IMG/VR virus record: IMGVR_UViG_3300017747_005338
Coordinates: 1 to 33,610 of that record
Reading direction: 5' to 3' (one strand)
Source: a virus
Lineage: Duplodnaviria; Caudoviricetes
DNA length: 33,610 nucleotides
Shown here piece by piece: positions 1 through 27,579 of the stretch. The notes beneath the pieces are model-generated. The model did not search any database. It saw nothing but the letters and a program-made list of their open reading frames with translations, and was not told the DNA's origin. The stretch's first letter is position 1, and each line of letters opens with the position of its first letter. The position numbers and the translations under genes were made by a program.

Positions 1-74
1 GAAGTAGGAGGAAGAGGGTTATTACTATATATACAGTGACCGAAAGATCTATCTCTAAGAGGTATTTTAATCAT
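1..74 (-). CDS. Partial ORF (5' end only; runs off window), MIKIPLRDRSFGHCIYSNNPLPPT..., function unknown
   Basis: ATG at 74-72 overlaps the TGA stop of the upstream GT11 gene (ATGA coupling) and the frame stays open to the window edge. Not in the supplied ORF track. Confidence 0.55.
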   Translation of the reverse strand, partial: MIKIPLRDRSFGHCIYSNNPLPPT

Positions 75-877
75 ACTCTGTACCACCCTTTTACGTGTAA
101 ATCTTTTGCGTCAGATGGGCCAGACCATGGACCTTGTGGTCCAAACCATAACGAAGGCATAACTACTATTTTATTTAAATTTTTATTAAGATAAGCACCC
201 CACCACGCAAATGTTGAGTTAGTAATAATATTATGATCGCAAAGCGTTATCATAATAAAATCATCTATTTGAGTACGGCCTTCCATAAAAAAAACTTTTT
301 TATTAGTGCGTTTAAATAAATGCTGGTTTGCTTTACACCAATTAATATCGTCTGAAAAAATAATATAAGTATCTATTTTGGTTTTGCTCTCCACTATATT
401 TTGCGCATCAAGCCAGTATCTATCTGGTTGTAAGGGATGTATATGTTGCAAATGAACATAGTCTCCGCGGCGCACACTTATAGAGCAAGTAACTCCTAAA
501 TTTAAACTATTTTTTATATCAGTTACTTCTTTTAAATTATCTTCTTTAAATTCAAATGTACTTTTAACTTCTTGTTCAGCCCCAGTAAAATATTTATCAC
601 TCTGTAAATAACCGCTTAAATACACTACTGATTTATCTTTTGGTAAAACAATCGGGTTGTAGTCAAAACTAGCTTCTGTAACATGGAATGGTTCCTTATA
701 TACAGTTAAAAGTTTGTTGAGTTTATTTTTAAAATATTTATTATTATTCCAATCATGTATAAATGTCGGGAAGCCGTGGTTGTCACGAGCTATACCTATA
801 GTACTAGCAATCTGAAACATTTGATTGCCTAGACCATATTCTCCCGACTGAGTTACTCCTGGATGTGTTACGTACAT
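71..877 (-). CDS. Alpha-1,2-fucosyltransferase-like glycosyltransferase (GT11)
   Basis: GT11 motifs GLGNQMFQ, GYLQSDKYF, SVRRGDY (GDP-sugar binding), IFSDDINWCK, NSTFAWWGAYL. Confidence 0.9.
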   Translation of the reverse strand: MYVTHPGVTQSGEYGLGNQMFQIASTIGIARDNHGFPTFIHDWNNNKYFKNKLNKLLTVYKEPFHVTEASFDYNPIVLPKDKSVVYLSGYLQSDKYFTGAEQEVKSTFEFKEDNLKEVTDIKNSLNLGVTCSISVRRGDYVHLQHIHPLQPDRYWLDAQNIVESKTKIDTYIIFSDDINWCKANQHLFKRTNKKVFFMEGRTQIDDFIMITLCDHNIITNSTFAWWGAYLNKNLNKIVVMPSLWFGPQGPWSGPSDAKDLHVKGWYRV

Positions 878-1665
878 TTGTATTTTTTATAAATTGTTTT
901 AAGATTTTTTAATACCACTTCAACTTGAGTATCTGGTGTATGAACGGGTATCCAACCATGCAATTTTTTATAGTGCTCAGCACCTTTTTTCATATTAGTA
1001 GTCCACTCTTCAGTGTGAGTAATAGAACTATTTTGTATAGAATTAGGTATTTCTTCTATTAGTTCATTACTACCTTCAATATCAGGAAACCACCAAAAAG
1101 CAGGTAATAGGCCTTTTTTAATACCTCGTTGACAAAGTTCTACATGCTCCCACGCATTTTTAAAATAAATGTCATGGACACCAACTTCATTAATATAACG
1201 CTTATCAAAATATGAAAAAGCTCCGACGGAGTGCATATTTAATGCAATCTTTATATTATTAGGGTATTCTACTATATAGCGCGGATTAGGCTTAGCATAG
1301 TCTTTAGTTCTGTTTGCAGGTCCATGATAACCAAAATTTAAATGGGTAATACCTGTAACTTTAGCCGCTTCTATATATTTGTTAAATATTGACGGAGATT
1401 TAATGATCATATCGTTTTCTATAAGAAAGATATGATCGCAATTTCTTTTTATAAGTTCCTTTATACCTTTATTTTTAGCAACCCCTACTGTTTGATATGA
1501 AGGAGTATTCTGCAATATTTCAATGTTTTTATTGCAATGCCACGGTATACCGTCATTAATAACTATTAGTTCGTTCAAATCTTGTTTGTTAGCAAGTACA
1601 CTATCGATACATTGTTCAGTAAAGTTAGTTCTGTCACAAGCTATGATTGCTGCTCCGATTTTCAT
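868..1665 (-). CDS. Glycosyltransferase family 2 (GT-A fold)
   Basis: N-terminal IIACDR...CIDSVL, LIVINDG, GVAKNKGI, FLIEND (DxD-like), and AWEHVEL at the ED-motif position. Confidence 0.8.
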   Translation of the reverse strand: MKIGAAIIACDRTNFTEQCIDSVLANKQDLNELIVINDGIPWHCNKNIEILQNTPSYQTVGVAKNKGIKELIKRNCDHIFLIENDMIIKSPSIFNKYIEAAKVTGITHLNFGYHGPANRTKDYAKPNPRYIVEYPNNIKIALNMHSVGAFSYFDKRYINEVGVHDIYFKNAWEHVELCQRGIKKGLLPAFWWFPDIEGSNELIEEIPNSIQNSSITHTEEWTTNMKKGAEHYKKLHGWIPVHTPDTQVEVVLKNLKTIYKKYKCT

Positions 1666-2720
1666 GTTTTTAATGCTCTATGATACAAGTCTGTAACATA
1701 TTCCTTTACTTTATCTTTATCTTTAATCTCTAATAAATCAATAAACTCAGATATAGAAGTTTCAACACTTACACTGAAATTTTTCGTATTAGCAAGTTCG
1801 TTGTTAACTTTATTAATTTCGGTGTAATCATAATCTATTGTTAATTCCACTGGCTTTACAGATACTAATTTACGCACAATAGCATCTACCATGCTCGGCT
1901 CCAATTGCTTATCTATAATAAACTTTACTATATTACCTGCAATTAACTGCTTAATAACAGTAGCTGTATGCTTACCGCTAAAAATATCTGAATAATAAAT
2001 TTTATTGTAACGCGGAGAAATATTGTTTTCGATAAATTCGTATGAAAGAGTATCTAGATCTAATATATAAAGACCTTTAGTAGTATTATAATCTCCCCAA
2101 TCTTGTTGATATGGGCACCCTACGTACAGGATCGTACCTTCGTTATACTTTCTTTCCTCTCTATGATGAAAATGGCCTGAAATAGTAAGTGGTGCTCTAC
2201 TAGTAAGATCAGCTGATTTGAGACCATTAGTACATACTTTAAAAGAGTTCATTTTAAAACTGTTAATTTCAAAATGACCCACAATTAAATCACACTTAGG
2301 TACTTGACTTATATCCTGCCCCCAAGGGCAAAACGCTATGGTCTTACCTTGGAGGTTAACAACTTGAAGAGTGTCAATAACAGTAATATTAGACCAGCCT
2401 CTAAGAATGGAGACGGAATTAACAGTAGAATTGTCACGGTAATAAGCGTCGTGATTACCGACTGTAATAATGATATTGAAGTCGCGAAGTATATCGAATA
2501 TGTCAGTAGCAATATGAAGAGTGTTAACAGCAATGTCGTTGCGATCATGAAATATATCTCCTGGTATTATTATATCTTTTATGCCTCTTTGTTTGAATTG
2601 TTCGCAGGCCCATTTTGCATGATCCAAAGCAATTTTATGCCAGGTCTCACTATTACGGTGTACTCCGTAATGCGGGTCTGAAAAAATACCAACTTCAGAG
2701 TTATGGATTTTAAATGTCAT
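1662..2720 (-). CDS. gp47: Recombination endonuclease subunit, T4 gp47 / Mre11-SbcD family metallophosphoesterase
   Basis: Phosphoesterase motifs FSDPHYG, PGDIFHDR, VGNHDAYY, VGHFE, SGHFH, YVGCPYQ; located next to gp55. Confidence 0.9.
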   Translation of the reverse strand: MTFKIHNSEVGIFSDPHYGVHRNSETWHKIALDHAKWACEQFKQRGIKDIIIPGDIFHDRNDIAVNTLHIATDIFDILRDFNIIITVGNHDAYYRDNSTVNSVSILRGWSNITVIDTLQVVNLQGKTIAFCPWGQDISQVPKCDLIVGHFEINSFKMNSFKVCTNGLKSADLTSRAPLTISGHFHHREERKYNEGTILYVGCPYQQDWGDYNTTKGLYILDLDTLSYEFIENNISPRYNKIYYSDIFSGKHTATVIKQLIAGNIVKFIIDKQLEPSMVDAIVRKLVSVKPVELTIDYDYTEINKVNNELANTKNFSVSVETSISEFIDLLEIKDKDKVKEYVTDLYHRALKT

Positions 2721-3228
2721 TATTTTTGTGCATCGGATTTACAGGATCATCGACCCCTACTTGAGGACCGATTATACTGTAAACCTCTTCTTGGTAAGCT
2801 GCTAAAGTATCTCGCATTCTTTTTTCTTTCTTAATACGAGATCTCCAGCAATTAAACGCAATAGAATTAAAATATGAAAACGGGTTAAAGCCACGATCAA
2901 ATTTGTATTTCTTCTCTTTTATGGCATTAAACATATTGATTAAAGAATCCCCAATTGCTTCTTCTTTAAACGTGTAATTAATAAAATTAGGGGCGTGAGC
3001 TAGACCGTATGCAATGTTTTTTATCATTAATGCGAGTTTATCGGTAATAACATTAGTTTCATAATACATTTTAAGTTCATCTGTAAACTCTTTGGGGTTT
3101 ACATAATAAATTTTTTTAGCTTGCGTGGACGCGCTTAACTTTTTTTCTTTTTTAGGAGCAGCTGCTTTTTCAATCGGAGCTGCTTTCGGTAATGTTTTTT
3201 TCGGTAATTTTAATTTTTTCAAGGGCAT
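2710..3228 (-). CDS. gp55: Late-transcription sigma factor, T4 gp55-like
   Basis: YYVNPKEF...IAYGLAHAPNFINYTFKEEAIGD...FNPFSYFNSIAFNCWRSRIKKEK matches the gp55 pattern; adjacent to gp47 as in T4-like phages. Confidence 0.88.
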   Translation of the reverse strand: MPLKKLKLPKKTLPKAAPIEKAAAPKKEKKLSASTQAKKIYYVNPKEFTDELKMYYETNVITDKLALMIKNIAYGLAHAPNFINYTFKEEAIGDSLINMFNAIKEKKYKFDRGFNPFSYFNSIAFNCWRSRIKKEKRMRDTLAAYQEEVYSIIGPQVGVDDPVNPMHKNNDI

Positions 3229-4633
3229 AAAATTCTTTACGTTTATTATAATGTGCTTTTCCGTAAACTAAATCGTCTACTATATCTATTAGAGTTAATA
3301 TTGTTTTATTTTCGTGAGTGCGAAGGCCGCGGCCTATTGACTGTAGAGTTTTAATTTTTGATTTACCACCAGCTGCAAACATAATATAATGTATATTTTT
3401 AATTGAAATACCGGTAGAGAAAATTTTACTTATTGCGACACACACTACGTTATTATGTGCTTCCATCATCTGCTGTATTTTAAGTCTATCTTCTATCTCT
3501 ACACTGCCTTGTATAAAAAATACTTGTTTATTCTCAATAGTAATTAAATTATTATATAAAGTCTGTCCATGGTCGATATGATCTACTAGAATAAGACAAT
3601 TATTTTGTAATTTTTTTACAACATTTTTTATAACCTTATTTCTGTACTCATTACTATGAATAAAATCTAATTCAAGACGGTATTTTTGCATCGATGATAC
3701 CGAAGTATAATCTGGTATCTTGTCATACTGTAAAAGTAATGAAAGTGCTTGTGCATTTGCAATATATTTATCCCCCGCAATTTCTCTTAATTCTGTTGTG
3801 GTTTTTTTGTATATAACAGGCCCTATATAATTAAATATATTCCATTTATCTATATCATCCTCTGGTAAAGTACCGGTAAACCCTACACGTCGTAAAGTAG
3901 GAATCTTATCAAGTAATTTACAAATTTTATTACCACGCCGTAGCTTATGGCATTCATCTACAATCAAAAGCCCTACTTCAGTAAACCAGGATAAGTCTGA
4001 TTTTTCAGACTGAAGTATACCCATATTAGCAATAATAACTCTACAATTAGGATCAAGTTCGTTATTACCGGTCCACTTAGTAACTAACTTCATAGGGAAA
4101 TTATATGAAGTAAAATCTTTATATGTCTGTTCAACTAACCCTATATCCGGTACAACTATTAACACTTTTTGTGTATACTCTATATATTGTAATGCACCGT
4201 ATACTAAGTTTGATATAATAAAAGTCTTACCGCCTCCAGTTGCTACTTCAATTATACCATAACCCCTTTCAAGTACCCGACCTATAGCTTCAGCTTGATA
4301 GTCTCGTAATTCAAAATTACAATCTAATTTTCTTACACTAGAGCCTGGTGTTGCTATATGCACGTTTGCATATAATTTTATAAGTTCTCCGTTAAAAACT
4401 ATTTCAAAAGGTATATCTAGAGTTTTTAGATATTTTACTATTTCCGGAACTAAACCTACCCCGCAATAGCCAGCTGGAGTAATTGCATATATTCTTTGCG
4501 GCATGAATCTGCCGAATTTATTAAAATGAGCAGCTTTATTACGTACAGAGAAATGTTCTTTAATGTTACTGAAAAAATCAGAAACAATTTTAACTTCTTT
4601 TCTTTTAGAATCGTAATTAAACTCTACTCTCAT
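3170..4633 (-). CDS. uvsW: UvsW-like SF2 DNA/RNA-DNA helicase
   Basis: LRDYQ Q-motif, ATGGGKT, DECH, TGT, FSTGISIKNIH, LQSIGRGLR; downstream of UvsY with a TAATG overlap. Confidence 0.92.
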   Translation of the reverse strand: MRVEFNYDSKRKEVKIVSDFFSNIKEHFSVRNKAAHFNKFGRFMPQRIYAITPAGYCGVGLVPEIVKYLKTLDIPFEIVFNGELIKLYANVHIATPGSSVRKLDCNFELRDYQAEAIGRVLERGYGIIEVATGGGKTFIISNLVYGALQYIEYTQKVLIVVPDIGLVEQTYKDFTSYNFPMKLVTKWTGNNELDPNCRVIIANMGILQSEKSDLSWFTEVGLLIVDECHKLRRGNKICKLLDKIPTLRRVGFTGTLPEDDIDKWNIFNYIGPVIYKKTTTELREIAGDKYIANAQALSLLLQYDKIPDYTSVSSMQKYRLELDFIHSNEYRNKVIKNVVKKLQNNCLILVDHIDHGQTLYNNLITIENKQVFFIQGSVEIEDRLKIQQMMEAHNNVVCVAISKIFSTGISIKNIHYIMFAAGGKSKIKTLQSIGRGLRTHENKTILTLIDIVDDLVYGKAHYNKRKEFYALEKIKITEKNITESSSD

Positions 4634-5034
4634 TACGTTGTTTCAAGTTTTTGTAGGTCTATAAGATTCTTACAGTCCCATGTTAAAGAGCTTGTAAGCT
4701 TTTCAACTTTTTCTAAATACTCAATAATGGTTTCGAGTTTATCTATACTCTCCTGTATTTTAGTTACATTCTCATCATTTGATGTAGCTTGTTCTAGCGT
4801 GGTTTTAGAAAGCGGTATAGGTGATTTGCTAATCATATTTTTTATTGCTTTCTTTTTTGTATCATTAAGTTTTCTGAGCTGCATTTTATGGTTCATCAAA
4901 CGCCCTACCCATTTATGTTTAATAGTAGGCACTAACATCGCTTTGTCTTTTAGAGACAACTCATCAACTTTAATATCCTCAGCTATCTCTTTCTGATACA
5001 AATCAAAAAGATTATCTAAAACCAATGATTCCAT
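4633..5034 (-). CDS. uvsY: Recombination mediator UvsY-like protein (start reassigned to ATG 5034)
   Basis: Helical 133-aa protein ending IEYLEKVEKLTSSLTWDCKNLIDLQKLE, like the UvsY C-terminus. It is adjacent to uvsW, and a sigma70-type promoter lies just upstream of ATG 5034. Confidence 0.75.
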   Translation of the reverse strand: MESLVLDNLFDLYQKEIAEDIKVDELSLKDKAMLVPTIKHKWVGRLMNHKMQLRKLNDTKKKAIKNMISKSPIPLSKTTLEQATSNDENVTKIQESIDKLETIIEYLEKVEKLTSSLTWDCKNLIDLQKLETT

Positions 5035-5041
5035 AGTACTA

Positions 5042-5069
5042 AGTATATAGTATATAATACAAAAATCAA
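5042..5069 (-). promoter_or_regulatory. Sigma70-type (early) promoter TTGATT-N16-TATACT for the uvsY-uvsW-gp55-gp47-GT operon
   Basis: Minus strand reads gTTGATTtttgtattatatactaTATACTtagtactATG; the -10 box ends 7 nt before the ATG. Confidence 0.6.
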
Positions 5070-5070
5070 C

Positions 5071-5322
5071 ATGAAGCAATTTGACGAAAAAATAAAACAG
5101 ATTTTAGAAGATGTAGGGGTAGATGCAGGAGCAGCTGCTAACACAACAACTACAGCCTTCGGGCCAGGTCAATCCCATCCTGCTCAAGTAGGAAAAAGCG
5201 GAGATTTTTACGCGCCTGGGGATGCCCGGAATATATTTGGCCCTAAGTCTAAAAAAACCAAATTCAAACCGCCGGGATTTAAAAAAGGCAAAGTGTTACG
5301 TAGAAGTTTTCCCGGGATGTAA
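5071..5322 (+). CDS. Hypothetical protein, possible internal head protein
   Basis: 83-aa ORF with N-terminus MKQFDEKIKQILE and a basic C-terminus. Confidence 0.65.
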   Translation: MKQFDEKIKQILEDVGVDAGAAANTTTTAFGPGQSHPAQVGKSGDFYAPGDARNIFGPKSKKTKFKPPGFKKGKVLRRSFPGM

Positions 5323-5335
5323 TAAGTAGCCAGAA

Positions 5336-5914
5336 ATGGCCAATGCAAGTAAGAACAAAGGTAAGAGCTGGGAACGGGAAATTGCGAAACATCTCACTGC
5401 AATATACGGAGTAAATTTTCAAAGAGTTCCTAACAGCGGAGCATTTGTAGGCGGTTTTAATGCTAACCGTATTTCTAGCTTGACCCCGGAACAATTATTA
5501 CTTGCATCCGGAGATATAATTTTACCTAGATTTCTATCTCATATTACACTGGAGGGTAAATTTTATAAAGATTTTAATTTTGAAAGTCTGTTAATTAATA
5601 ACCAACAGCTTGATGGCTGGATTGAACAAGCATCTGTGGTCGGTAAAATTCCCTTTGTTCTATTTAAAATTAACCGCAAAGGCGGGTTTGTAGTATTCCC
5701 CTCCGCTATTAAAGATCGGTTAATAATTGAAGGTAGTTATTTAAACTATTGGGTCACTAAAAAGGACAGCCCTGCGCGCGGGTGTTATGTTATTGTCAAA
5801 ATGGAAGGTTTTTTTGAGACAAATAAAGAATCTATAGTTGCTCTTAACCAGGACAATTATAGACTGTATAGTGATGCGTTTTTACAAAACAGCTCTCAAT
5901 CTACTAATAATTGA
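5336..5914 (+). CDS. Holliday-junction resolvase-like PD-(D/E)XK nuclease (Hjc type)
   Basis: SKNKGKSWEREIA...RVPNSGA...GDII...LEGKFYK is the Hjc-like E...D...ExK layout; TAAGTA lies 7 nt upstream. Confidence 0.75.
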   Translation: MANASKNKGKSWEREIAKHLTAIYGVNFQRVPNSGAFVGGFNANRISSLTPEQLLLASGDIILPRFLSHITLEGKFYKDFNFESLLINNQQLDGWIEQASVVGKIPFVLFKINRKGGFVVFPSAIKDRLIIEGSYLNYWVTKKDSPARGCYVIVKMEGFFETNKESIVALNQDNYRLYSDAFLQNSSQSTNN

Positions 5915-6320
5915 TTTTACCTGGATAGAAGAAATTGTCTGCAAAGACTACTACCAACAATTAAACGATTGGGGTATTTTGGAAGAATCTTTAAAAGATA
6001 AAGAAAAAAATAGACTACGTATCTACCATTATACAAAACACATGTTTAATGTGTTAAAAAATAATGATAACAACAAAAATACTGTATTTTATGTTATTAA
6101 AGATAATCCAAATACGTATTTAAATATTATTACAAAATACCTTCCGTTTATAGTTCATTACGGTAGTATAGATTTTAAATGGATTGATTCAAACAACGGG
6201 GAATCTAGAGAAATTATAGAAGGTGTAAAAACTACTAGGTTTAATTTTGACTACAGCAAATACTCTAAACAGAAGGCAAACACCTTTTACGAAAAGTATA
6301 AAATCCAACCATTTATTTAA
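5874..6320 (+). CDS. Hypothetical protein
   Basis: Open frame, probably starting at ATG 5874 (MRFYKTAL), overlapping the end of the resolvase gene; no motif recognised. Confidence 0.6.
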   Translation: MRFYKTALNLLIIDFTWIEEIVCKDYYQQLNDWGILEESLKDKEKNRLRIYHYTKHMFNVLKNNDNNKNTVFYVIKDNPNTYLNIITKYLPFIVHYGSIDFKWIDSNNGESREIIEGVKTTRFNFDYSKYSKQKANTFYEKYKIQPFI

Positions 6321-8300: not shown

Positions 8301-8328
8301 TTGAAAATAATAATTTTTCTCATACTAT
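8301..8328 (+). promoter_or_regulatory. Sigma70-type promoter TTGAAA-N16-TACTAT for the queD-queE operon
   Basis: The -10 box ends 6 nt before the queD ATG. Confidence 0.6.
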
Positions 8329-8334
8329 TTTAGT

Positions 8335-8787
8335 ATGGGTAAATTCTATTCTACTAAAGTAATTCCTCTCGGGTCGTGTGCTTTTCGGCAACCTCATGCG
8401 AAAAGCCATTGCAAATATATTCACGGTTACCGGCTACAGGCTAAATTTTGGTTTGCATGCAATGAACTAGATCAAAACAACTGGGTAGTTGATTTTGGTG
8501 GTCTAAAGGAACTAAAGAGAGATCTTGAAAATACATTTGATCATAAAACCGTAGTATGGGGTAAAGATCCTGATCTTGAAACTTTTTACCTACTTGAGAG
8601 TAAGGGAATGATTGAACTAGTTGTGCTTCATGGCGGGGTAGGCATAGAGAAGTTTGCTGAGCTTTGCTGCGATCTTGCTGATTCTTATGTCAGAAATATG
8701 ACTGATAATCGTTGCTGGTGTGAAAAAGTAGAAGTTTGGGAGCACGAACAAAACAGTGCAATTTATCAAAAGTATTTTAATATTTAA
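8335..8787 (+). CDS. queD: 6-carboxy-5,6,7,8-tetrahydropterin synthase (QueD/PTPS family)
   Basis: CAFRQ...SHCKYIHGY, WVVDFGGLK, FDHK, GIEKFA, VEVWEHEQNSA; directly upstream of queE. Confidence 0.9.
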   Translation: MGKFYSTKVIPLGSCAFRQPHAKSHCKYIHGYRLQAKFWFACNELDQNNWVVDFGGLKELKRDLENTFDHKTVVWGKDPDLETFYLLESKGMIELVVLHGGVGIEKFAELCCDLADSYVRNMTDNRCWCEKVEVWEHEQNSAIYQKYFNI

Positions 8788-8789
8788 TT

Positions 8790-9593
8790 ATGAGCGCTGA
8801 TAAGACTCTTTTTCTCTCTGACGATTTTGTCTTTTATACTCTTGAAGGAGAAGGCCGATACATCGGCTATCCTTCTGTGTTTATGAGGTTGTCTATGTGC
8901 AATCTCACCTGTATTGGGTTTAAGAGTGATGATGCACCTTTCGGGTGTGATAGTTATGTAAGCTGGTCTAAGAAGAATAAAATGACTTTTGAAGAGATTG
9001 CTCAGCTCTTTGAAAAGAACGACTATCATGAAATGCTTAAGCAGGGTGCTATTCTTAAGCTTACCGGTGGTGAACCCTTCATTCAGCAAAAGAATCTTAT
9101 TGAATTTGTAAAGTTTATTGTTAATCGTTGGGGGTTCTTTAATTTGGAAAATGAGTTCGACTTTATGGCCGCAGAGCCTCAAGAGCCAGTACTTAGGATC
9201 GATTTTGAAACTAATGGTACTGTTATGCCGGACGAAGAATGGCATCAACTAGGTTGCGTGGTAACATATACTACGTCTCCTAAGCTCTCCAGTAACGGGG
9301 ATCCCGAAGAAAAGCGCTTTAAACCAGACGTGCTTCGTTACCTTGTTGATAAACAAGCGTGTTTTAAGTTTGTTGCTAAGCAAGAATCTGATCTTACAGA
9401 AGTACTAGAAAAGTATGTTAATAACCCTGATGTTGCGGTACCTAATGAACTAGTTTGGATCATGCCTATGTGTGGGTCTCGGGAAGAGCTTCTTAAAGTC
9501 GGCCCAGCTGTAGCTGAAATATGCAAGAAATATTGTTTTAAGTTTAGTAACCGTATGCACTTGCAAATCTGGGATAAAGCCCTAAAGGTATAA
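8790..9593 (+). CDS. queE: 7-carboxy-7-deazaguanine synthase (radical SAM)
   Basis: FYTLEGEGRYIGYPSVFMRLSMCNLTC...GCDS, LTGGEP, FETNGT, SPKLS, KFV, RMHLQIW. Confidence 0.92.
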   Translation: MSADKTLFLSDDFVFYTLEGEGRYIGYPSVFMRLSMCNLTCIGFKSDDAPFGCDSYVSWSKKNKMTFEEIAQLFEKNDYHEMLKQGAILKLTGGEPFIQQKNLIEFVKFIVNRWGFFNLENEFDFMAAEPQEPVLRIDFETNGTVMPDEEWHQLGCVVTYTTSPKLSSNGDPEEKRFKPDVLRYLVDKQACFKFVAKQESDLTEVLEKYVNNPDVAVPNELVWIMPMCGSREELLKVGPAVAEICKKYCFKFSNRMHLQIWDKALKV

Positions 9594-9594
9594 T

Positions 9595-9753
9595 ATGAAA
9601 GCACCCAATCCAGAATGGCATTTTAAACTTAGTGTAATTAAAAGTATACTACGTATTATTGCAGGGGCTGCTTTTATAAAAAGCAATATCGTTGCCGGGG
9701 GATTATTGCTAATTTTAGCTGAAATTATTGGTATAGTGGAAGAAATTATATAA
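9595..9753 (+). CDS. Small hydrophobic (membrane) protein, 52 aa
   Basis: Not in the ORF track. MKAPNPEWHFKLSVIKSILRIIAGAAFIKSNIVAGGLLLILAEIIGIVEEII fills the gap between the queE stop and the next ATG. Confidence 0.75.
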   Translation: MKAPNPEWHFKLSVIKSILRIIAGAAFIKSNIVAGGLLLILAEIIGIVEEII

Positions 9754-9984
9754 ATGAAAACTACAATTAAATTCACGTATGAAAGCGAATACACTTCTGA
9801 GTTTGCCGGGCATTGTGGAACTCCGCGCAAGCTTGAAGTTGTTTTAGGAGGAGATATTACTCTTGATGAACTTGTTGAGCAATTTGGGCTTTTTGTAAAA
9901 GGAGTCGGTTATTACCCTCCTGACAACGCTCATTTAGAATACGTTGATAACGATACAGAAAAGCCTAAGTCGTTAGAAGAATGA
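9754..9984 (+). CDS. Hypothetical protein
   Basis: 76-aa ORF abutting both neighbours (TAAATG upstream, ATGA downstream). Confidence 0.7.
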   Translation: MKTTIKFTYESEYTSEFAGHCGTPRKLEVVLGGDITLDELVEQFGLFVKGVGYYPPDNAHLEYVDNDTEKPKSLEE

Positions 9985-10691
9985 CAAAATTAAAAAAAAT
10001 TGGTATTATTGGTACTCAATGTGTGGGTAAAAGCACACTTATTGAGGATATGATTCTTCAATGGCCTCAATTACAACGACCCGACAAGACCTACAGAGAT
10101 TTAATTAAAGAAAAAAATTTACCAATTAACAAAAACGGTACTAAAGAATCTCAAGAAACTATCCTTAATTTTCTTGTTGATGAGGCCATGGGGTATACAG
10201 GTTCTAAAAAAATGATTTATGACCGAACCCCACTCGATAATCTTGTCTATTCTCTCTGGTTGTATAGTAAAGAGACTTCAGATATTGATGAAGCTTTTAT
10301 CGATAAGTGTGTAGTTACAGTCAGGCACGCACTTAAGTTTTATTCTGTGTTGTTTTATTTGCCCTTAGTTAAGGAAAATGATGTAGCTTTAACTGTAAAA
10401 GAACAAAGAGATGTTGATCCGGCTTATAGAGGTGAAATAGGGGTATTATTTGAAACACTGTACAAAGCATGGCAAAAAGGTGGTTCTAGGTTTTTTGATA
10501 ATGAAGATTGTCCACCGATTATTCCTATTTACGGAAATCCCTTAGAAAGAATTGCTATGCTAAAAATGTATATCAATGAAAAATGCGAATTTTACGGGGA
10601 AAGCGAAAGCCTTATCACTAAAGACATTAACGATCAGGCATTTCTTTCGGAGCAGCTAGGATTATCCAATAAAAACTTGCACAAAAAGTAA
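9981..10691 (+). CDS. P-loop nucleoside/nucleotide kinase-like protein (AAA_28/NadR-kinase/dNMP-kinase-like)
   Basis: Walker A IGIIGTQCVGKST, and YDRTPLDNLVY (the DR motif of NMP/dNK kinases). Confidence 0.7.
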   Translation: MTKLKKIGIIGTQCVGKSTLIEDMILQWPQLQRPDKTYRDLIKEKNLPINKNGTKESQETILNFLVDEAMGYTGSKKMIYDRTPLDNLVYSLWLYSKETSDIDEAFIDKCVVTVRHALKFYSVLFYLPLVKENDVALTVKEQRDVDPAYRGEIGVLFETLYKAWQKGGSRFFDNEDCPPIIPIYGNPLERIAMLKMYINEKCEFYGESESLITKDINDQAFLSEQLGLSNKNLHKK

Positions 10692-10711
10692 TAAGTAATA
10701 ACATACTTATT

Positions 10712-11323
10712 ATGACATTCGATAAACTAGCAAATCAGATCAACGAGAACTTCATGCCAGAAGCTCGTAAGCCTAATCCTGAATTTCAGAAATGGAAAGC
10801 AGAGAACCCTGGAGTGCCGGTTTATAAGTTTTATAAAATGCAGCGAGATAAGAAGGCTGGTCTAGGTGCAGACGCACCTACTTCAGAACCTTCAGAAGAG
10901 CCGGAGATTAGCACCCTAAGTAAGGACCCTGCTACTGAGCGTACTCGTCTTGCAGTAGCAGACTATATCGCGCATAATCCTAACGCTTCAGTTGACGAAA
11001 TTATCGATGCAATTGCAATTGATAGTACTGAAGAGACACCTCTTAATCTTGACCCGGCAGTAGTTAAAGCAATTGTTGATCAAGAATCTTCTATGGAAGA
11101 GCCTGGCATGGAAGAGCCTTCTCTGTCTGATATTAAGAAGGATGAATTGTCTGCTAAGTACGACCGTATGCGTCAAGCTCTATACAGAGCTCGTGGATTT
11201 AAGGCACGTCCAGGTCGCCGCGGTGTTTCCCGAGATGTAGAAGGAGAGCCAGAAGAAGATACACCGATTAGCCGCCGTGGTATTAATATGAGGGATGAGC
11301 CGTTCGATCCTAATGAGTTGTAA
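10712..11323 (+). CDS. Hypothetical acidic late protein, possible internal head protein
   Basis: N-terminus MTFDKLANQINE; Glu/Pro-rich; TAAGTA at 10692-10697. Confidence 0.7.
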   Translation: MTFDKLANQINENFMPEARKPNPEFQKWKAENPGVPVYKFYKMQRDKKAGLGADAPTSEPSEEPEISTLSKDPATERTRLAVADYIAHNPNASVDEIIDAIAIDSTEETPLNLDPAVVKAIVDQESSMEEPGMEEPSLSDIKKDELSAKYDRMRQALYRARGFKARPGRRGVSRDVEGEPEEDTPISRRGINMRDEPFDPNEL

Positions 11324-11768
11324 GAAATTTTTCGGTTAATATAATAAATTTCATACCTTTTTTAGCCGCGTATTCATGCGCGGCTTTCCATTTGCACTGG
11401 TTTTGATGGTACATTAAATTTTCATACAACACTGTACTGCTCTTTTTTTTGTTAGATTGCTTAGGGGGCTGTGTTTGTGCGTATGGTTTTAATTCAATTA
11501 AATATTTTTGCACCTCCCCGGCCGGATCTTTAATTGCAGCTATAAGGTCTATGTAATATTTGTGTACTTTTTTATCCACATCGTTGTAATAAGGTATCAC
11601 TATTGACTCGCTAGCCCAAGCAACCACGTTTGGATTCTTATCAAAATACAAAAAAAAGTTTTTTTCTAATGAAGACCTGTATGACGGATTTGTACCGCCT
11701 TTGTATTTATCTCTATTTATCGGGGTATATAATCCTTGAAAGTACTTGTTATTTTTAGGGTAGGCCAT
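11310..11768 (-). CDS. gp4: Head completion nuclease, T4 gp4-like (TnsA-type endonuclease fold)
   Basis: FQGLYTPINRDKYKG, YRSSLE, WASESIVIPY, HKYYIDL, IELKP, NQCKWKAA, FIILTE. Confidence 0.88.
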   Translation of the reverse strand: MAYPKNNKYFQGLYTPINRDKYKGGTNPSYRSSLEKNFFLYFDKNPNVVAWASESIVIPYYNDVDKKVHKYYIDLIAAIKDPAGEVQKYLIELKPYAQTQPPKQSNKKKSSTVLYENLMYHQNQCKWKAAHEYAAKKGMKFIILTEKFLTTH

Positions 11769-11787
11769 ATACTATAGTTACTTACCT

Positions 11788-12813
11788 GTGCAAATATCTC
11801 AAAATTTAGTTATCAATACGTTTTTCCAATACTGCAAACGTCCGGTATTTAAAAAAACTACTGGCACGTATAACGGGGAGTGTCCGTATTGCCATGAAGG
11901 CAAAAGTGCAGGTAAGAAGAGACGGTTCTTTTATATACCTGAAGAAGACCATCTTTATTGTCATAATTGTAGCGCCAGTACTGATGGTTTTAATTTTGTA
12001 AAAGAGCAAACAGGTATGTCATTAAAGGACATACTTGCAGAGTCTGAATTACGTACAGACACTATAGAAGATATTATTAAACGTTCTTCCGTTTATAAGA
12101 AATACAATCCTAAAAGTTTACCAGATGATTGTATAAACCTGTTTGACAATAATCAGACTTCATTTTATAGTGCAAATGCTACTGTTAAAGATGCTTTAGA
12201 GTTTATTAATAAAAGAAGGCTTAACACCGCAGTCAATCGCCCTAAAGCTTTGTGGTTGAGTTTAACTGACTATACGCATAAGAATAGAGTTGTATTTCCA
12301 TTTTATAGTCCCAATGGAGGGGCTAAAGTAGAATTTTATCAATCTCGTGCACTCTATAAAGTTGATGAAGATAGGGCTAAGTATCTATCTAAAGCTAATT
12401 CAGATAAAGGTATATTTAATATAGACAAGATTGTACCTGATATTGAATATATATTTTTACAGGAAGGACCTATTGACGCTATGTTTTTACGTAATAGTGT
12501 AGCCTTGGCAGGTATTAACCCTACTGAAAGTCAGGTAGATCGTTTACAGACGCTATTCCCTATGCATACCCTAGTTTACGTACTCGACAATCAATGGGTA
12601 GACAGTACTTCTTATGATGTTACCAGAGCTCTTCTAGATAAAGGCGAAAAAGTTTTTCTATGGCCAGCAGGCCTTGAAAGATTTAAAGACATTAACGATT
12701 TATGTGTGCACACTAAACAAGATGAACTAGATTGGAATATAATAGTTAAGCATACATATACAGGTATGAAAGGTTTAATTAAATTTTCTCAAATCAAATG
12801 CAAACAAAATTAA
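11788..12813 (+). CDS. gp61: DNA primase, T4 gp61-like
   Basis: Zn ribbon CPYC...YCHNC; YQSR, KYLS; TOPRIM motifs EGPIDAMF, VLDN and KDINDL; GTG start. Confidence 0.9.
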   Translation: MQISQNLVINTFFQYCKRPVFKKTTGTYNGECPYCHEGKSAGKKRRFFYIPEEDHLYCHNCSASTDGFNFVKEQTGMSLKDILAESELRTDTIEDIIKRSSVYKKYNPKSLPDDCINLFDNNQTSFYSANATVKDALEFINKRRLNTAVNRPKALWLSLTDYTHKNRVVFPFYSPNGGAKVEFYQSRALYKVDEDRAKYLSKANSDKGIFNIDKIVPDIEYIFLQEGPIDAMFLRNSVALAGINPTESQVDRLQTLFPMHTLVYVLDNQWVDSTSYDVTRALLDKGEKVFLWPAGLERFKDINDLCVHTKQDELDWNIIVKHTYTGMKGLIKFSQIKCKQN

Positions 12814-13499
12814 TCGCAATTACTCAGCCGTTTGTCCCCATGGTTCCTGAAGGTTTTAGAAACCCTCACCCTGGTAACGACCATTTCAATATGACCCCAG
12901 AGCAATTTGTTGTGTATATAGCCCGAGTAAGCAATCCGTCTAACCAAATGAATACCGAGACTGGTCACAAGCTTATTCGCTATCTTATTAAACACAAGCA
13001 CTGGAGTCCTTTTGAGCACATAAGCTGCACTTTTGAGATCTGGACATCTAGAGCTATAGCGGCTCAGATTCTAAGACATCGCTCATTTACTTTTCAAGAG
13101 TTTAGTCAGCGCTACGCTCAGGCAACTAATTTTGAACCTGTAGAATGGCGTAAACAAGGCAAGACCAATAGACAAGTCGGGGATGAGCCGGTACAGCTTC
13201 CACAACATCTGCAGTACGCAGTTGATGAAGCTCAGCGTAACGCTAAAGCTTTATACGATCAGCTTATAAATGAAGGTATTGCTAAAGAATCTGCTAGAAT
13301 GATACTCCCCCTTAATACCCAAACAAGAATTTATATGTCAGGTACTTTGCGTAGCTGGATTCACTATCTTGATCTTCGTTGCGCAGAAGGTACTCAAAAG
13401 GAGCATAGAGAAATAGCTTTAGACATAAAAAAAGGTCTCGAAGAATTATTTCCCGAGACCTTTAAAGCTATTAATGAGTTAAGCGTTAACGAGGGGTAG
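12798..13499 (+). CDS. thyX: FAD-dependent thymidylate synthase
   Basis: HWSPFEH, the ThyX motif RHRSFTFQEFSQRY, ESARMILP, TQKEHR. Confidence 0.95.
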   Translation: MQTKLIAITQPFVPMVPEGFRNPHPGNDHFNMTPEQFVVYIARVSNPSNQMNTETGHKLIRYLIKHKHWSPFEHISCTFEIWTSRAIAAQILRHRSFTFQEFSQRYAQATNFEPVEWRKQGKTNRQVGDEPVQLPQHLQYAVDEAQRNAKALYDQLINEGIAKESARMILPLNTQTRIYMSGTLRSWIHYLDLRCAEGTQKEHREIALDIKKGLEELFPETFKAINELSVNEG

Positions 13500-14190
13500 A
13501 AGCGTCTTTAACTTTCTTTTCAGAAGTAATTACGACTGACTTGAAGACCTCTGCTAAACCGCGGAGGTTTTCTGCTAATTTAGTAATACGCTTTTCTTCT
13601 CGACGAACAACTCCACGGAACGGTATCGAATTTTTAATTTCTAATTGATTAATTTGAGAGTTAAGACTTTCAGGACCGGTACCGTTAACGAAATCAGCCA
13701 TCTCTTCTAATTTAGAAATCCAATTACGAGCCGCATCAACACCTGACGAATCGACCTTTAACTGTGGGTTATCAGCAACATCAAAATCTTTAGGATTAGT
13801 ACCTTTGTCTAATGAACGTTTGTAAGCTTCTTCATCAGACATTTCTCCGCCAGAAGGGGCTGGAGCAGCCTCCATTTCATAGTTCTCCTTCATAGCTTTT
13901 TTCTTTTTGTCTGACATTTTATGTTTTTCGCGAAGAGTTATATCTTTATCCCCGACTTTAATTTTATCTCCTGGTTTTTTGCCAGCGGCCTTTGCGTCTT
14001 GCACTGCTTTACTGAACGCATTACCTTCTGTTTCTTCTTTCTTTAAGCCTTTCTTTTTACGAAGAGCTGCAAAATCTGCACCTGTAATTTTACCCTTAGG
14101 TTCTGCTACATCGATGTTTTTTTGACCACCATGAAGTTTTTCGGTTTCTTCGTTTAAGGATTTAAGAAATGTATTTGCAAACTTTGACAT
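13486..14190 (-). CDS. Hypothetical late protein, probable internal head/prohead-core protein (start reassigned to ATG 14190)
   Basis: N-terminus MSKFANTFLKSLNE, several L/I-x-E sites, and a DVAEPKGKITGADF segment; TAAATA 8 nt upstream. Confidence 0.7.
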   Translation of the reverse strand: MSKFANTFLKSLNEETEKLHGGQKNIDVAEPKGKITGADFAALRKKKGLKKEETEGNAFSKAVQDAKAAGKKPGDKIKVGDKDITLREKHKMSDKKKKAMKENYEMEAAPAPSGGEMSDEEAYKRSLDKGTNPKDFDVADNPQLKVDSSGVDAARNWISKLEEMADFVNGTGPESLNSQINQLEIKNSIPFRGVVRREEKRITKLAENLRGLAEVFKSVVITSEKKVKDASTPR

Positions 14191-14214
14191 AATACTATTA
14201 TTTATCAAAAACAT

Positions 14215-14242
14215 TTGAATTTCTAAGGTTATATTTTATTAT
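14215..14242 (+). promoter_or_regulatory. Sigma70-type promoter TTGAAT-N16-TATTAT for queC-gat
   Basis: The -10 box ends 6 nt before the queC ATG. Confidence 0.6.
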
Positions 14243-14248
14243 AAACAT

Positions 14249-14959
14249 ATGGCTAAAGCACTCGTTATTCTTTCTGGTGGTATGGATAGTTCTATTCTCT
14301 TACACCATGTTGCAACACGTATGCGTTATGATGAACTGTACGCAATTACATTCAACTACGGTCAACGGATTATTCGAGAAATTGATTGTGCAAAAGCTCA
14401 AGCTCTAGATGCAGGTGTTACTGAGCATAAAATTATAAATATGGATTTCTTTAGAGATATTTCTAAGATGTCTGCTCTTACCAATACCGATCTTAAAATT
14501 CCTAAAGCAAGAGAAGATATAGGAAACGCTCAACCGCTTAGTTATGTACCGTTTAGAAACTTACTACTTCTAACAACTGCAGCTGGATGGGCTGAAAGCA
14601 TTGGAGCAAATGACTTATTTTACGGGGCAGTACAAACTGATGACTTTTCCGGATACTGGGACTGTACTTCATTATTTTTGAACAAAGTTAATGATGTGTA
14701 TAATCTTAACCGTAAAAATACAATTAAGGTAAATGCACCTTTTATGACATGGTCTAAGGATCAAGTTGTAAAGGAAGGTATTGATTTGAATATTAATTTT
14801 TTACAGACCCATACTTGTTATGAAGGTAAAGAGGTAGCATGTGGAGAGTGTGTGTCTTGCGCAGCGCGTATTAAGGCGTTTATAGACAATAAAACTATAG
14901 ATCCAATTAAATATGCAAAAGAAATACCGTGGAGTAAATTTGATTGTAAGACATACTAA
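14249..14959 (+). CDS. queC: 7-cyano-7-deazaguanine (preQ0) synthase
   Basis: PP-loop SGGMDS, FNYGQR, YVPFRN, GYWDC, and Zn site TCY...CGECVSC. Confidence 0.95.
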   Translation: MAKALVILSGGMDSSILLHHVATRMRYDELYAITFNYGQRIIREIDCAKAQALDAGVTEHKIINMDFFRDISKMSALTNTDLKIPKAREDIGNAQPLSYVPFRNLLLLTTAAGWAESIGANDLFYGAVQTDDFSGYWDCTSLFLNKVNDVYNLNRKNTIKVNAPFMTWSKDQVVKEGIDLNINFLQTHTCYEGKEVACGECVSCAARIKAFIDNKTIDPIKYAKEIPWSKFDCKTY

Positions 14960-14962
14960 GTT

Positions 14963-15637
14963 ATGTGCGGTATAGCAGGATCAATTAATAAGGCTACAGC
15001 TTTTAAACTGTACCAAAGCAATTTAAACCGGGGCTTTTATAGTTCCGGTTCTATTGTACTTGATGACCTCAACATGTGGGTTTGTAAAAAAGTTTTGGGG
15101 CAATTTAAAGATTCAGTTGAGCCAGCATGCGTGCCTGGTATACATACAGAAGGTTTATACTATCTTTATCATTCTAGAGGACCTACAGTAGAAACTAAAG
15201 GTTTTAATGAAGAGGATAACCATCCATTTTTTTATGATGACTGGATAGTTGCTCATAATGGTATTATTAGTAATTTTGAAAAACTTTCTAAAGAACATTA
15301 CCCTGGTGTAGATTTTACAGACAAAACCGATAGTTGCATTATACCTCGAATGCTTAGTTTATTTGGTATTGAGTATGGCCCAGAAAAACTAGAAGGTACT
15401 TTTGCATTCTGGGCTTATAATATACGCACAAACAATCTTTACCTTGTACGCAATTCTTGTACTTTATTTGCAAATTTAGCAACAGGAGATTTCTCATCTA
15501 CTGAATTTGAAAATAGTATACCACTTGAAGAAGGTAAGCTTTATTGCATAGATTATAGTAAACAGCAACTTACACAGAACACTCGATTAAAAATTAAACG
15601 TACTTTTAGTTTTAAATCTCCATATTTTATATTCTAA
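14963..15637 (+). CDS. Class II (Ntn) glutamine amidotransferase, stand-alone, adjacent to queC
   Basis: N-terminal nucleophile MCGIAG, HSRGPT, HPF, HNGIISN, TDS; starts 3 nt after the queC stop. Confidence 0.85.
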   Translation: MCGIAGSINKATAFKLYQSNLNRGFYSSGSIVLDDLNMWVCKKVLGQFKDSVEPACVPGIHTEGLYYLYHSRGPTVETKGFNEEDNHPFFYDDWIVAHNGIISNFEKLSKEHYPGVDFTDKTDSCIIPRMLSLFGIEYGPEKLEGTFAFWAYNIRTNNLYLVRNSCTLFANLATGDFSSTEFENSIPLEEGKLYCIDYSKQQLTQNTRLKIKRTFSFKSPYFIF

Positions 15638-15645
15638 GTATATCT

Positions 15646-16035
15646 ATGGCTAATGATGCTATAGATTACATTAATAGAGACATCGTAAATGTTAAAGAAG
15701 ACCTACGTACTATCAGTAAATTAGTTAGAGATGGTAACGGCCAGCCTAGCCTTATACAACAGGTAACTATGCTGCAAAGCGATATAGGAAGAATTGAAAT
15801 AGAAATAAAAGAAGAAATACTAAACTTACAAAGCACTGTTGAATCATTTAAAGCTAAAGAAAAAGAAAGAAACACACTAACTTGGCAATTTAAAACAGCA
15901 ATCGGGGTTGCATTAATTACAAGCTTTACTTCAGTTTTGTTGCATTATATGAACAACAAAACTACCGATACGGAAAAAGTTCTAACTCAAATAGTAGAAA
16001 GACTTGATAAAGTTAATATAACACCTAAAAAATAA
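15646..16035 (+). CDS. Late coiled-coil membrane protein (holin-like candidate)
   Basis: Coiled coil with GNGQPSL and one hydrophobic helix (TAIGVALITSFTSVLL); TAAGTA 5 nt upstream. Confidence 0.5.
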   Translation: MANDAIDYINRDIVNVKEDLRTISKLVRDGNGQPSLIQQVTMLQSDIGRIEIEIKEEILNLQSTVESFKAKEKERNTLTWQFKTAIGVALITSFTSVLLHYMNNKTTDTEKVLTQIVERLDKVNITPKK

Positions 16036-16075
16036 AGTAGATTTAATAAAATTATACTCTAGAATAATTCTAGAT

Positions 16076-16342
16076 ATGAAGAGTATTAATTTTTCGCTAG
16101 AGGAAGTACAGCTAATTATAGAATCTTTATTGTTTACATCCGGTACCGATGTTTGCTCGGAACATACTGATGCACAAAGAATTAAAATGATAAATTTGGC
16201 TGAATCTCTTAATAATAAATTTGATAAGCCCAATCTGCATAACATATATCTGTATAAAGATATGACAATTTCCGATAAGATTACACCAGTAATTACTGAA
16301 AAATTCTCTAATCTTCCACTTAGTGATATTATTACTGATTAA
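16076..16342 (+). CDS. Hypothetical protein
   Basis: 88-aa ORF, TAATG-coupled to the downstream GT; possible TAGATT-N16-TAGAAT promoter upstream. Confidence 0.65.
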   Translation: MKSINFSLEEVQLIIESLLFTSGTDVCSEHTDAQRIKMINLAESLNNKFDKPNLHNIYLYKDMTISDKITPVITEKFSNLPLSDIITD

Positions 16343-17028
16343 TGAAAAAAACAGTTTTAGTATTCTGCTCTCAAGTCTCGAATGAAAAAGAACTTAATGA
16401 GAGATATGGTAAATATCATATTTTAAAATCTTCCTGTTTAAAAGAAGTAGAATGTGTTAAAATATTTTCTAACACAAAATCTCTTCCAAAGAGATATAAT
16501 GAATGGATAAAAAATGAAGATTATAATGTAGTTTTCGTACATGATGATGTTTTAATAAACGATAATGAATGGTTAGAAAAATTATCTAATAATTTAAAAA
16601 AATACGACGTAATCGGTCTCGCTGGTACTTCAACCGCAAGAATTTCAGAACCATGTCTATGGCATTTAATGAGTTCTAAAGAAGACCATAAAGGTAGAGT
16701 TAGTCATGTATCAGATGGAGGCAACGGCACTTTTGTAACCCACTTTGGCAAACACGGAAGAGTTCTTATACTCGATGGTTTGTTTTTAGCTTTTAACTCT
16801 AAAAAAGTGTATGAGGCTGGAGCATTTTTTGATGAGACCAATCCTTGTGTTGCACATTTTTATGACATAGATTTTAGTTTAACTTGTAATAGTAAAAAAT
16901 TAAAATTGGGTACCGTGGATATTAATGCAATACATAATTCTCACGGACTTCGTTCCTTTACTGATGAATGGCTTTCAGGCCAGGCCTGGTTTTTAGACAA
17001 AGTTAAGAATGGAAAATATTTAACCTGA
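16342..17028 (+). CDS. GT-A fold glycosyltransferase-like protein
   Basis: SLPKRYN, VFVHDDV (DxD), IGLAG, LDGLFLA, HFYDIDFSL, HNSHG. Confidence 0.75.
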   Translation: MKKTVLVFCSQVSNEKELNERYGKYHILKSSCLKEVECVKIFSNTKSLPKRYNEWIKNEDYNVVFVHDDVLINDNEWLEKLSNNLKKYDVIGLAGTSTARISEPCLWHLMSSKEDHKGRVSHVSDGGNGTFVTHFGKHGRVLILDGLFLAFNSKKVYEAGAFFDETNPCVAHFYDIDFSLTCNSKKLKLGTVDINAIHNSHGLRSFTDEWLSGQAWFLDKVKNGKYLT

Positions 17029-17037
17029 TAATATAAT
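17010..17037 (+). promoter_or_regulatory. Sigma70-type promoter TGGAAA-N16-TATAAT for the DUF366-like gene
   Basis: Perfect -10 box ending 6 nt before ATG 17044; same geometry as the queD and queC promoters. Confidence 0.55.
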
Positions 17038-17043
17038 TTAATT

Positions 17044-17625
17044 ATGATTATTAACGATCAAAAAATATACGACGGATCTTTTATTCACAAGCGTTTTGCG
17101 TACAAATATTTCCGAGACAAAACTTTACCTATTGGTAATATTGTTTCGTTTGTGGCACCGGTTGAAGTTACTTTGAATCTTATTGATTTAGAAGATTCTC
17201 TTGAGAAAGATTATATCTATAGCGAGTCTATGGTAAATTTTTGCTGGGAGATACCTAATTTAGATCCTTTCGGTGCTGTATGTTTTCAACGCCTATTCAA
17301 TACTTCTATTGCTAATATTCTTTATAAGCAAATTAATAAGCCTATTGAAATGAAGGGAGACGATATTATGGTTCATGCTGACCATAATCAAGGCGGGATA
17401 CATCAAACTAAAGGTAAAGCCTCCGTTAGCATTACCTATTCAAAAGATAATGTAGCTATAGGGCATACCGGTGTTAACGTTGTAGCTGGTAAAAAGGCTC
17501 CTGCTTTTGCATTTAGTACTAATCTTACCCCTGACCAGACTGTAAAATTTCAGAATGATGTTATGCATCAGTTCTACAGCATGGTAGATAATATTTTTAT
17601 TGCTACTACCAAAGTTATTGTTTAA
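17044..17625 (+). CDS. DUF366-like protein (lipoate/biotin-ligase, class II aaRS-like fold)
   Basis: YDGSFIH...AY, LIDLED, IYSESMVNF, FQRLF, KGDDIMV, KASVSI, HTGVNV follow the motif series I recall for DUF366; recognised by eye, not searched. Confidence 0.7.
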   Translation: MIINDQKIYDGSFIHKRFAYKYFRDKTLPIGNIVSFVAPVEVTLNLIDLEDSLEKDYIYSESMVNFCWEIPNLDPFGAVCFQRLFNTSIANILYKQINKPIEMKGDDIMVHADHNQGGIHQTKGKASVSITYSKDNVAIGHTGVNVVAGKKAPAFAFSTNLTPDQTVKFQNDVMHQFYSMVDNIFIATTKVIV

Positions 17626-24586: not shown

Positions 24587-25165
24587 ATGTCTATTGGCAT
24601 ATATAAAATTATATTAGGTGAATATTACTATATTGGTTCGTCTAATAATATACAAAGACGTATTACCAAACATCTTCAACATTTACGGAGAGGTACACAT
24701 ATAAATCCGTTTCTACAAAATGTATATAACAAGCATTCGGGTACGTGGAAAGTAAAAGTGTTGGAAGAGACCGTAGAGCAAGATTTACTTGCTATAGAGC
24801 AAAAGTACCTAGATATACACTACGGAAAAGACGGCTGTTTAAACCTAGTTCCAACTGCTAATAAACCGCCTTCAGCTCGTGGTAGAAAACAACCTAAATG
24901 GGTCCGTGAGAAAATATCTGAAGGCAAAAAAGGTTGGGACCCGTCTAAAGAAACCAGACAAAATATGTCTTTTTCGGCCCGTCGTAGACACAAAACTGTT
25001 CCGTTTTATCTAGTCTCTGACGCTATACGGCTCGGTCCTTTTTATACTTTTAAAGAGGTAAAACAAGCAGGTATTATGGATGATAGCTCTGCCTGTGAAC
25101 TTTACAATAATCGAGGTGGACCTACCCGTAAAGGTTATAAACTTGAACGTATTAATTTATCCTAA
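24587..25165 (+). mobile_element. Free-standing GIY-YIG homing endonuclease (Seg-like) with NUMOD3-like DNA-binding region
   Basis: GIYKI...YYIGSS...RRITKH...H.NPFLQ...EQKYLD...LN; REKISE and PSKETRQNMS; own TAAGTA late promoter at 24576-24581. Confidence 0.88.
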
Positions 25166-27572: not shown

Positions 27573-27579
27573 TACCAAT

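Follow-up and report, generated by a model that had tools for sequence, protein, structure and literature searches.

Genes of the predicted pathway in the window

The stretch analysed here is the IMG/VR virus record IMGVR_UViG_3300017747_005338 (33,610 nt in full, hereafter the window), a T4-like phage fragment that encodes the portal, the major head protein, primase, a UvsW-type helicase and the late sigma factor. It carries genes of a predicted 7-deazaguanine DNA modification pathway. The metagenome runs that contain the window are freshwater or lake samples, and its left end is present in 20 runs from 17 studies. An earlier note on this DNA had named six genes of interest. All six open reading frames (ORFs) were confirmed at their positions, with profile matches as described there:

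8335..8787, plus strand: QueD (PF01242, E 7e-18; phrog_2389)
8790..9593, plus strand: QueE, radical SAM enzyme with the Cys motif CX3CX11C (phrog_2076, E 5e-42; motif from the sequence)
14249..14959, plus strand: QueC (PF06508, E 2e-60; TIGR00364 match exceeding its cut-off)
14963..15637, plus strand: Gat, a stand-alone class II (N-terminal nucleophile, Ntn) glutamine amidotransferase (PF13522, E 8e-12), beginning 3 nt past the queC stop
16342..17028, plus strand: GT-A glycosyltransferase (GT; PF13712, E 3e-12; GT-A fold in the structure model)
17044..17625, plus strand: DUF366 protein of biotin/lipoate-ligase fold (PF04017, E 4e-21; 75.8 bits against a cut-off of 29.9)

The DUF366 assignment thus holds by hidden Markov model, with a match above the Pfam cut-off. 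FolE and DpdA are absent across the full 33,610-nt record, as the note had stated.

A DpdA3 cassette in close relatives

A search of IMG/VR for DUF366 gave 514 viral stretches, the best 80 of which were taken as relatives. G001 (120 kb, 57% complete) is the longest of the close relatives, and its QueD, QueC and DUF366 are 99%, 91% and 95% identical to those of the window. G001 runs on past the left end of the window, where it has the DNA polymerase gene (pol), dpdA3, a small ORF, the gene of a PurN-like formyltransferase (dpdN), a kinase gene and a bimodular queF (62392-68060), with folE at 75350, 7 kb beyond this cassette. By the G001 coordinates, the record of the window stops ~9 kb short of the cassette genes.

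Ten of the 12 close relatives have DpdA3, and in the subclade of the window its gene comes right after that of the DNA polymerase. The two records where it was missed are contigs ending ~24 and ~26 kb from DUF366, and elsewhere, in the records where the distance was computed, dpdA3 lies 25–28 kb from DUF366. QueF and DpdN were each found in 8/10 close relatives, both misses having dpdA3 at the contig edge, and folE was found in 3/5. FolE and DpdA, which the earlier note expected outside the window, are therefore present in close relatives, and so is the queF that it proposed to look for. A nucleotide-level route without DpdA can be rejected for this subclade given the frequency of DpdA3.

The same region was also seen in metagenome runs. 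Of the words sampled from window positions 1-6000, run X2 contains 99%, and it has a single 10.7-kb contig spanning gp46-pol-dpdA3-dpdN-kinase, which is ~85% identical to G001; the window itself is 73–90% identical to G001. In run X1 the same gp46-to-kinase region is in two pieces. Both runs may be the source of the window itself, so they are not independent of it. The left end of the window had no match when searched against viral contigs.

The best cultured-phage match of the G001 DpdA3 is Flavobacterium phage immuto (48%), and immuto_2-6A has the same gene order as the G001 cassette (identities 47/41/35/40%). According to the consulted part of Cui et al. (2023, PMC10516641), dG is fully replaced by 7-(formylamino)methyl-7-deazaguanine (fdPreQ1) in immuto_2-6A, at 345,000 per million nucleotides; the same part names the formyltransferase DpdN by prediction and lists three uncultured phages that have it. 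Together with its close relatives, the window shares the gene set of immuto_2-6A, with the cassette order dpdA3-x-dpdN-kinase-queF and DpdA3 47–48% identical. The window's clade differs in having two additional genes, the free gat and the DUF366 gene, which were not detected in immuto. It also has its Que genes at several separate sites and a polymerase of family B, whereas that of immuto is annotated as family A.

Based on these comparisons of sequence and gene order, we consider it probable that the genes of the window, with the FolE, QueF, DpdN and DpdA3 of its close relatives, replace guanine with fdPreQ1 in the phage DNA. We favour fdPreQ1 over 7-cyano-7-deazaguanine (preQ0) or archaeosine (G+) because in the close relatives the DpdA3 gene is accompanied by those of QueF and DpdN, arranged as in immuto_2-6A. 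A 7-deazaguanine DNA modification pathway, as proposed in the earlier note, is thus supported by DpdA3 and the other genes of the close relatives. Its suggestion that the product is preQ0 or G+, further changed to an undescribed base, is not, since QueF and DpdN point to a known one. What the window and its relatives have is the known DpdA3/DpdN system in a variant form, to which gat and the DUF366 gene are added.

QueC and the free Gat

The window QueC has the motifs SGGMDS, Y37, VPFRN, R103, YWDC (for YPDC) and Y191 and the zinc cysteines C190/198/201/204. Canonical QueC, as described in the consulted part of a QueC survey (PMC13329287), has SGGxDS, the essential residues Y35/R99/Y131/Y189 and zinc cysteines in ~220–240 aa. 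The window protein agrees with this description and is full length, with the H of YxQxHxxE and the P of YPDC substituted.

In the window and in its relatives queC and gat are two separate ORFs, queC first, and not one fused chain. The Gat residues R23, H70, R72, H98-N99-G100 and D123 are kept in 39/39 distinct close sequences; these were chosen by a leading MC, so the N-terminal Cys follows from the selection, and 7 matches without MC were set aside. The roles of these residues are presumably those of their GlmS counterparts. Distant Gat sequences (n=67) keep the class II residues except R72. Linkage to the Que genes was confirmed in distant phages for both Gat and DUF366, as had been proposed. 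Where a distant gat locus has at least 3.5 kb upstream, queC is there in 58 of 59 cases, and four distant loci read queD-queE-queC-gat-folE, without GT. It is likely, judging from its intact motifs and linkage, that the free Gat feeds ammonia to QueC.

The best surviving alternative is that QueC and the free Gat are a split Gat-QueC making archaeosine, the DNA then having dG+ alone or mixed with fdPreQ1. The Gat profile matches the Gat half of the Gat-QueC of Enterobacteria phage 9g (E 1e-13), so that in both systems a class II Gat with a homologous domain is coupled to QueC, and the 9g fusion gives dG+ according to the consulted part of PMC6884629. Unlike in 9g, where Gat is fused to the N-terminus of QueC, the window has gat as a gene of its own after queC, the window QueC is just 28% identical to the QueC half of the 9g protein, and the relatives have DpdA3, QueF and DpdN. 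QueF and DpdN are sensible only on the branch of 7-aminomethyl-7-deazaguanine (preQ1), and they occur in 8/10 records of the window's subclade. Ammonia supply for preQ0 is thus the simpler role for Gat, and we regard a split archaeosine synthase as unlikely here.

The alternative fares differently in two distant phages, G016 and G035, which are complete by CheckV. They have DpdA3, QueC/D/E, the free Gat, GT and DUF366, and no QueF or DpdN was found in them. For these two dG+ is a fair guess, and their base may be dG+, dPreQ0, the deoxynucleoside of 7-amido-7-deazaguanine (dADG) or something new. The QueE of G016, and likewise of G025, G031 and G037, is of a different, distant type compared with the window QueE (CX3CX11C).

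Six other distant phages, G022, G024, G025, G031, G032 and G036 (L165, L170, L179, L195, L197 and L242), have the order uvsX-queC-gat-GT-gp41, several of them with QueE and DUF366 in addition. In these genomes, all 25–47% complete, there was no DpdA3 match and, in five of the six, no match to tRNA-guanine transglycosylase (TGT). Nothing is inserted behind pol in G024. The enzyme that inserts the base in these phages may be encoded on the missing sequence or be of another kind.

DUF366

The DUF366 structure model (pLDDT 76, with residues 1-27 and 45-56 poor) has as its top fold match 2ddz, the PF04017/COG2029 structure from Pyrococcus horikoshii (TM-score 0.71). Unlike that protein, for which no function was found in print, the window DUF366 is phage-borne and linked to QueC. 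The next matches are biotin and lipoate ligases (BPL/LplA; E 5e-5 to 1e-3, TM-score 0.4–0.57). The predicted fold resembles their catalytic domain; it differs in that DUF366 has the catalytic domain only, at 9–16% identity, and its ligase activity is putative. A search with the protein sequence gave no match to the BPL/LplA family. The segment GDD...K resembles what we take to be the catalytic Asp/Lys motif of BPL/LplA. Residues D48/E50/D51, E69, Q82/R83, D107, K125, H141 and N145 are invariant in 42 sequences. The divergent homologues P0164, P0168, P0204 and P0236 lack the GDD motif as well as the DLED loop, and the conserved lysine is lost in part of them.

Co-occurrence of DUF366 with Que genes across phages was confirmed. 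Among 33 longer records, DUF366 was found in 13, all of them QueC-positive, and in none of the 11 QueC-negative ones. It co-occurs with QueC even where the two are tens of kb apart, and in distant phages it was gained or lost together with queC/gat. No information comes from synteny in the 80 closest loci, as all tallied neighbours, primase and helicase included, are kept wherever the contig reaches; the median DUF366 identity of 85% in these loci is inflated by their having been chosen by DUF366.

Beyond phages, a metagenome scan with three distant members of the DUF366 family as queries gave 32 loci. In 30 of them queC is directly upstream, and the other two have only 36 and 48 bases ahead of the match. 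As read from ORF starts, the neighbours look like housekeeping genes, and most of the loci seem to be of one lineage, with four more distant. No dpdA match was seen near them with phage queries, which have limited sensitivity. At L303-L331, the QueC beside a cellular-looking DUF366 has FPDN/FSDN where canonical QueC has YPDC; phage QueC has YWDC or similar. DUF366 was further found in 2/14 control genomes, both of them methanogens (archaea). The cellular context comes from this one metagenome scan, since a scan of species genomes gave only a phage-like contig in a metagenome-assembled genome, and DUF366 was absent from 400 further genomes of the same phylum. It was not found in plasmids, nor in cultured phages except for one record with chromosomal-looking surroundings, and a search for longer or fused forms gave one chimeric-looking match, which is weak evidence. 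No paper was found for DUF366 (as a whole word) or COG2029, most subscription papers lying outside the search. DUF366 is absent from the supplement of Cui et al. (PMC10516641) and from one supplementary file of the 2026 QueC survey (PMC13329287), whose full neighbourhood tables may lie elsewhere.

Taken together, linkage and fold make a role of some kind for DUF366 at the QueC step quite probable. DUF366 is likely a helper of that step and not, as the earlier note suggested, a decorator of the finished base, an idea that loses support from the tie of DUF366 to queC in cellular-looking loci. Precursor synthesis fits better than DNA decoration because the queC-DUF366 loci sit among housekeeping genes without a nearby dpdA match, and because DUF366 occurs in archaea.

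Two related alternatives make DUF366 a ligase of a new kind. In phages with DpdA3 and without QueF and DpdN (G016, G035), an unrecognised ATP-dependent DUF366 ligase could, with QueC and the free Gat, build a never-described amide-linked derivative that replaces guanine. We give this little credence; if true, it would also explain the queC-DUF366 pairs in cells. Slightly less credible still is a ligase that, in general, couples an amine to 7-carboxy-7-deazaguanine (CDG) or to an intermediate after it, leaving an undescribed amide-linked 7-deazaguanine in the DNA. The ligase fold, the invariant residues, a promoter of its own and co-inheritance with the pathway in phages are in keeping with it. 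Its place behind queC in the 30 housekeeping-like loci and its presence in the two archaeal genomes are not, and the side chain is already explained by QueF and DpdN.

The glycosyltransferase

A GT adding a sugar to the side chain of the 7-deazaguanine in DNA, as also proposed before, would be in line with the GT-A fold and with the position of GT next to queC-gat at two genomic sites. GT- and Gat-seeded searches gave 139 distant loci, near-duplicates included and thus not independent, of which 129 contain GT. At the primase site 13/38 GT loci have queC, gat and DUF366, 24/38 have none of the three and one ends early, with queC-gat adjoining GT in 14/38. Loci with GT and no queC/gat are also found at the uvsX-gp41 site (3/44), and Gat is without GT in 10 loci, some ending early.

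The 11 QueC-negative ones among the 33 longer records likewise lack QueE, DUF366 and DpdA3, and GT is kept in Que-free records that are 73% and 77% complete. In four Que-free records with GT, pol adjoins the next core gene, with no dpdA3 between them. Their relatives G033-G035 have queE and dpdA3 inserted at the corresponding sites, and G033 and G035 also have queD. In a tree of 17 rows, the GTs of Que-free and Que-bearing phages fall in one supported clade. Fold search with the GT model gave generic GT-A matches and no acceptor hint, and no GT relative was detectable in cultured phages. The window has four further glycosyltransferase genes (GT11, GT2-like, GT9, GT2) and a UDP-galactopyranose mutase gene, in 71-1665, 26050-27578 and 31379-32470.

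A glycosylated base is very improbable, because GT persists in relatives that are without every tested Que and Dpd gene. It is likely that GT follows the phage lineage and is unrelated to the pathway, since Que-free phages keep it and share a tree clade with Que-bearing ones.

Promoter-like sites and other features

Three sigma-70-type sites of one class precede pathway genes:

8301..8334, plus strand: TTGAAA-16-TACTAT-6 ahead of the queD ATG
14215..14248, plus strand: same class ahead of queC, kept in 20/20 relatives
17010..17043, plus strand: same class ahead of DUF366, kept in 16/20 relatives, with the -35 hexamer inside the coding end of GT

The earlier note took these promoters of identical geometry for one early regulon. 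The sites exist: its pattern has exactly 3 matches in the window (8301, 14215, 17010), where 200 local shuffles gave 0.035 on average, a contrast that overstates the significance because the pattern was fitted to these three sites after the fact. The strict spacing ahead of queD is found in only 4/14 relatives. A slightly looser form precedes 5/45 ORFs in the window and 14/131 in G001 (against 12/997 and 26/3148 of all ATGs, respectively), in G001 including uvsY, gp46, the UDP-galactopyranose mutase gene and others. The idea of a Que-specific regulon is rejected because this form also precedes unrelated genes. The sites read as the general sigma-70-type class of the phage, probably leaderless to judge from the spacing.

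A P-loop kinase gene (phrog_2107, thymidylate-kinase-like) lies at window positions 9981-10691, two genes past queE. It is likely outside the pathway, as Que-free relatives carry the kinase too; a second kinase is the one in the dpdA3 cassette. A free-standing homing endonuclease gene (24587-25165) is located between the portal and head-tail adaptor genes, and G001 is without a homing endonuclease at that site. In G001, L090:6450-7124 is the gene of a ferredoxin-dependent bilin reductase (PF05996).

Proposed pathway and points against it

FolE, QueD and QueE convert GTP to CDG. QueC makes preQ0 from CDG, ATP and ammonia, and QueF reduces preQ0 to preQ1. In the phage, Gat would release ammonia from glutamine for QueC. 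We tentatively suggest from its fold and linkage, as one possible role, that DUF366 forms or handles CDG-adenylate and yields the amide 7-amido-7-deazaguanine (ADG), which QueC would then dehydrate. QueF would reduce the preQ0 to preQ1. A predicted formyltransferase, DpdN, and a predicted base-exchange enzyme, DpdA3, would complete the pathway, and we assign no order to their two steps. The modification would give resistance to host nucleases, and GT would have an unrelated job.

Several observations weigh against this proposal. The cassette genes are absent from the window, and no contig joining cassette and window was seen. Even in the consulted part of PMC10516641, the functions of DpdN and DpdA3 are predictions, and tests of DpdA3 in E. 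coli failed. Since immuto_2-6A makes fdPreQ1 without detectable Gat or DUF366, both are extras, and in phage 9g the product obtained with a fused Gat-QueC is G+. DUF366 was not found in 9/22 QueC-positive records (fragments, one of them 81% complete), and the MaAM05 record has one DUF366 copy that does not adjoin queC. As to GT, its frequent adjacency to queC-gat at two sites speaks for a link: at the uvsX-gp41 site it adjoins them in 41/44 loci (about half of the loci came from the Gat-seeded search). In the tree, moreover, the window GT has a long branch of its own, apart from the clade into which the GTs of Que-free phages fall.

A role of the Que genes in host tRNA modification or protein deazaguanylation, and not in phage DNA, is hardly probable. 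In its favour, two members of the QueC family, Cap9 and QatC, modify proteins (PMC13329287, consulted part), and the tested distant fragments with the second site gave no DpdA3 or TGT match. Against it, the window's subclade has DpdA3 directly behind the DNA polymerase gene, another subclade shows DpdA3 and the Que genes gained or lost together, and the full-length window QueC passes the QueC equivalog cut-off.

Implications

Replacement of guanine by fdPreQ1 in phage DNA is the outcome that we favour. Predicted full replacement is thereby extended to a widespread uncultured clade of freshwater T4-like phages (514 DUF366-bearing IMG/VR stretches). Lineages with and without QueF and DpdN make a natural test of the free Gat, that is, of ammonia supply for preQ0 against G+ formation. 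fdPreQ1 is already a known base, and the new lead is likely DUF366 as a helper of QueC: a family with a solved structure gains a testable role, with QueC as its partner in phages as well as in cells.

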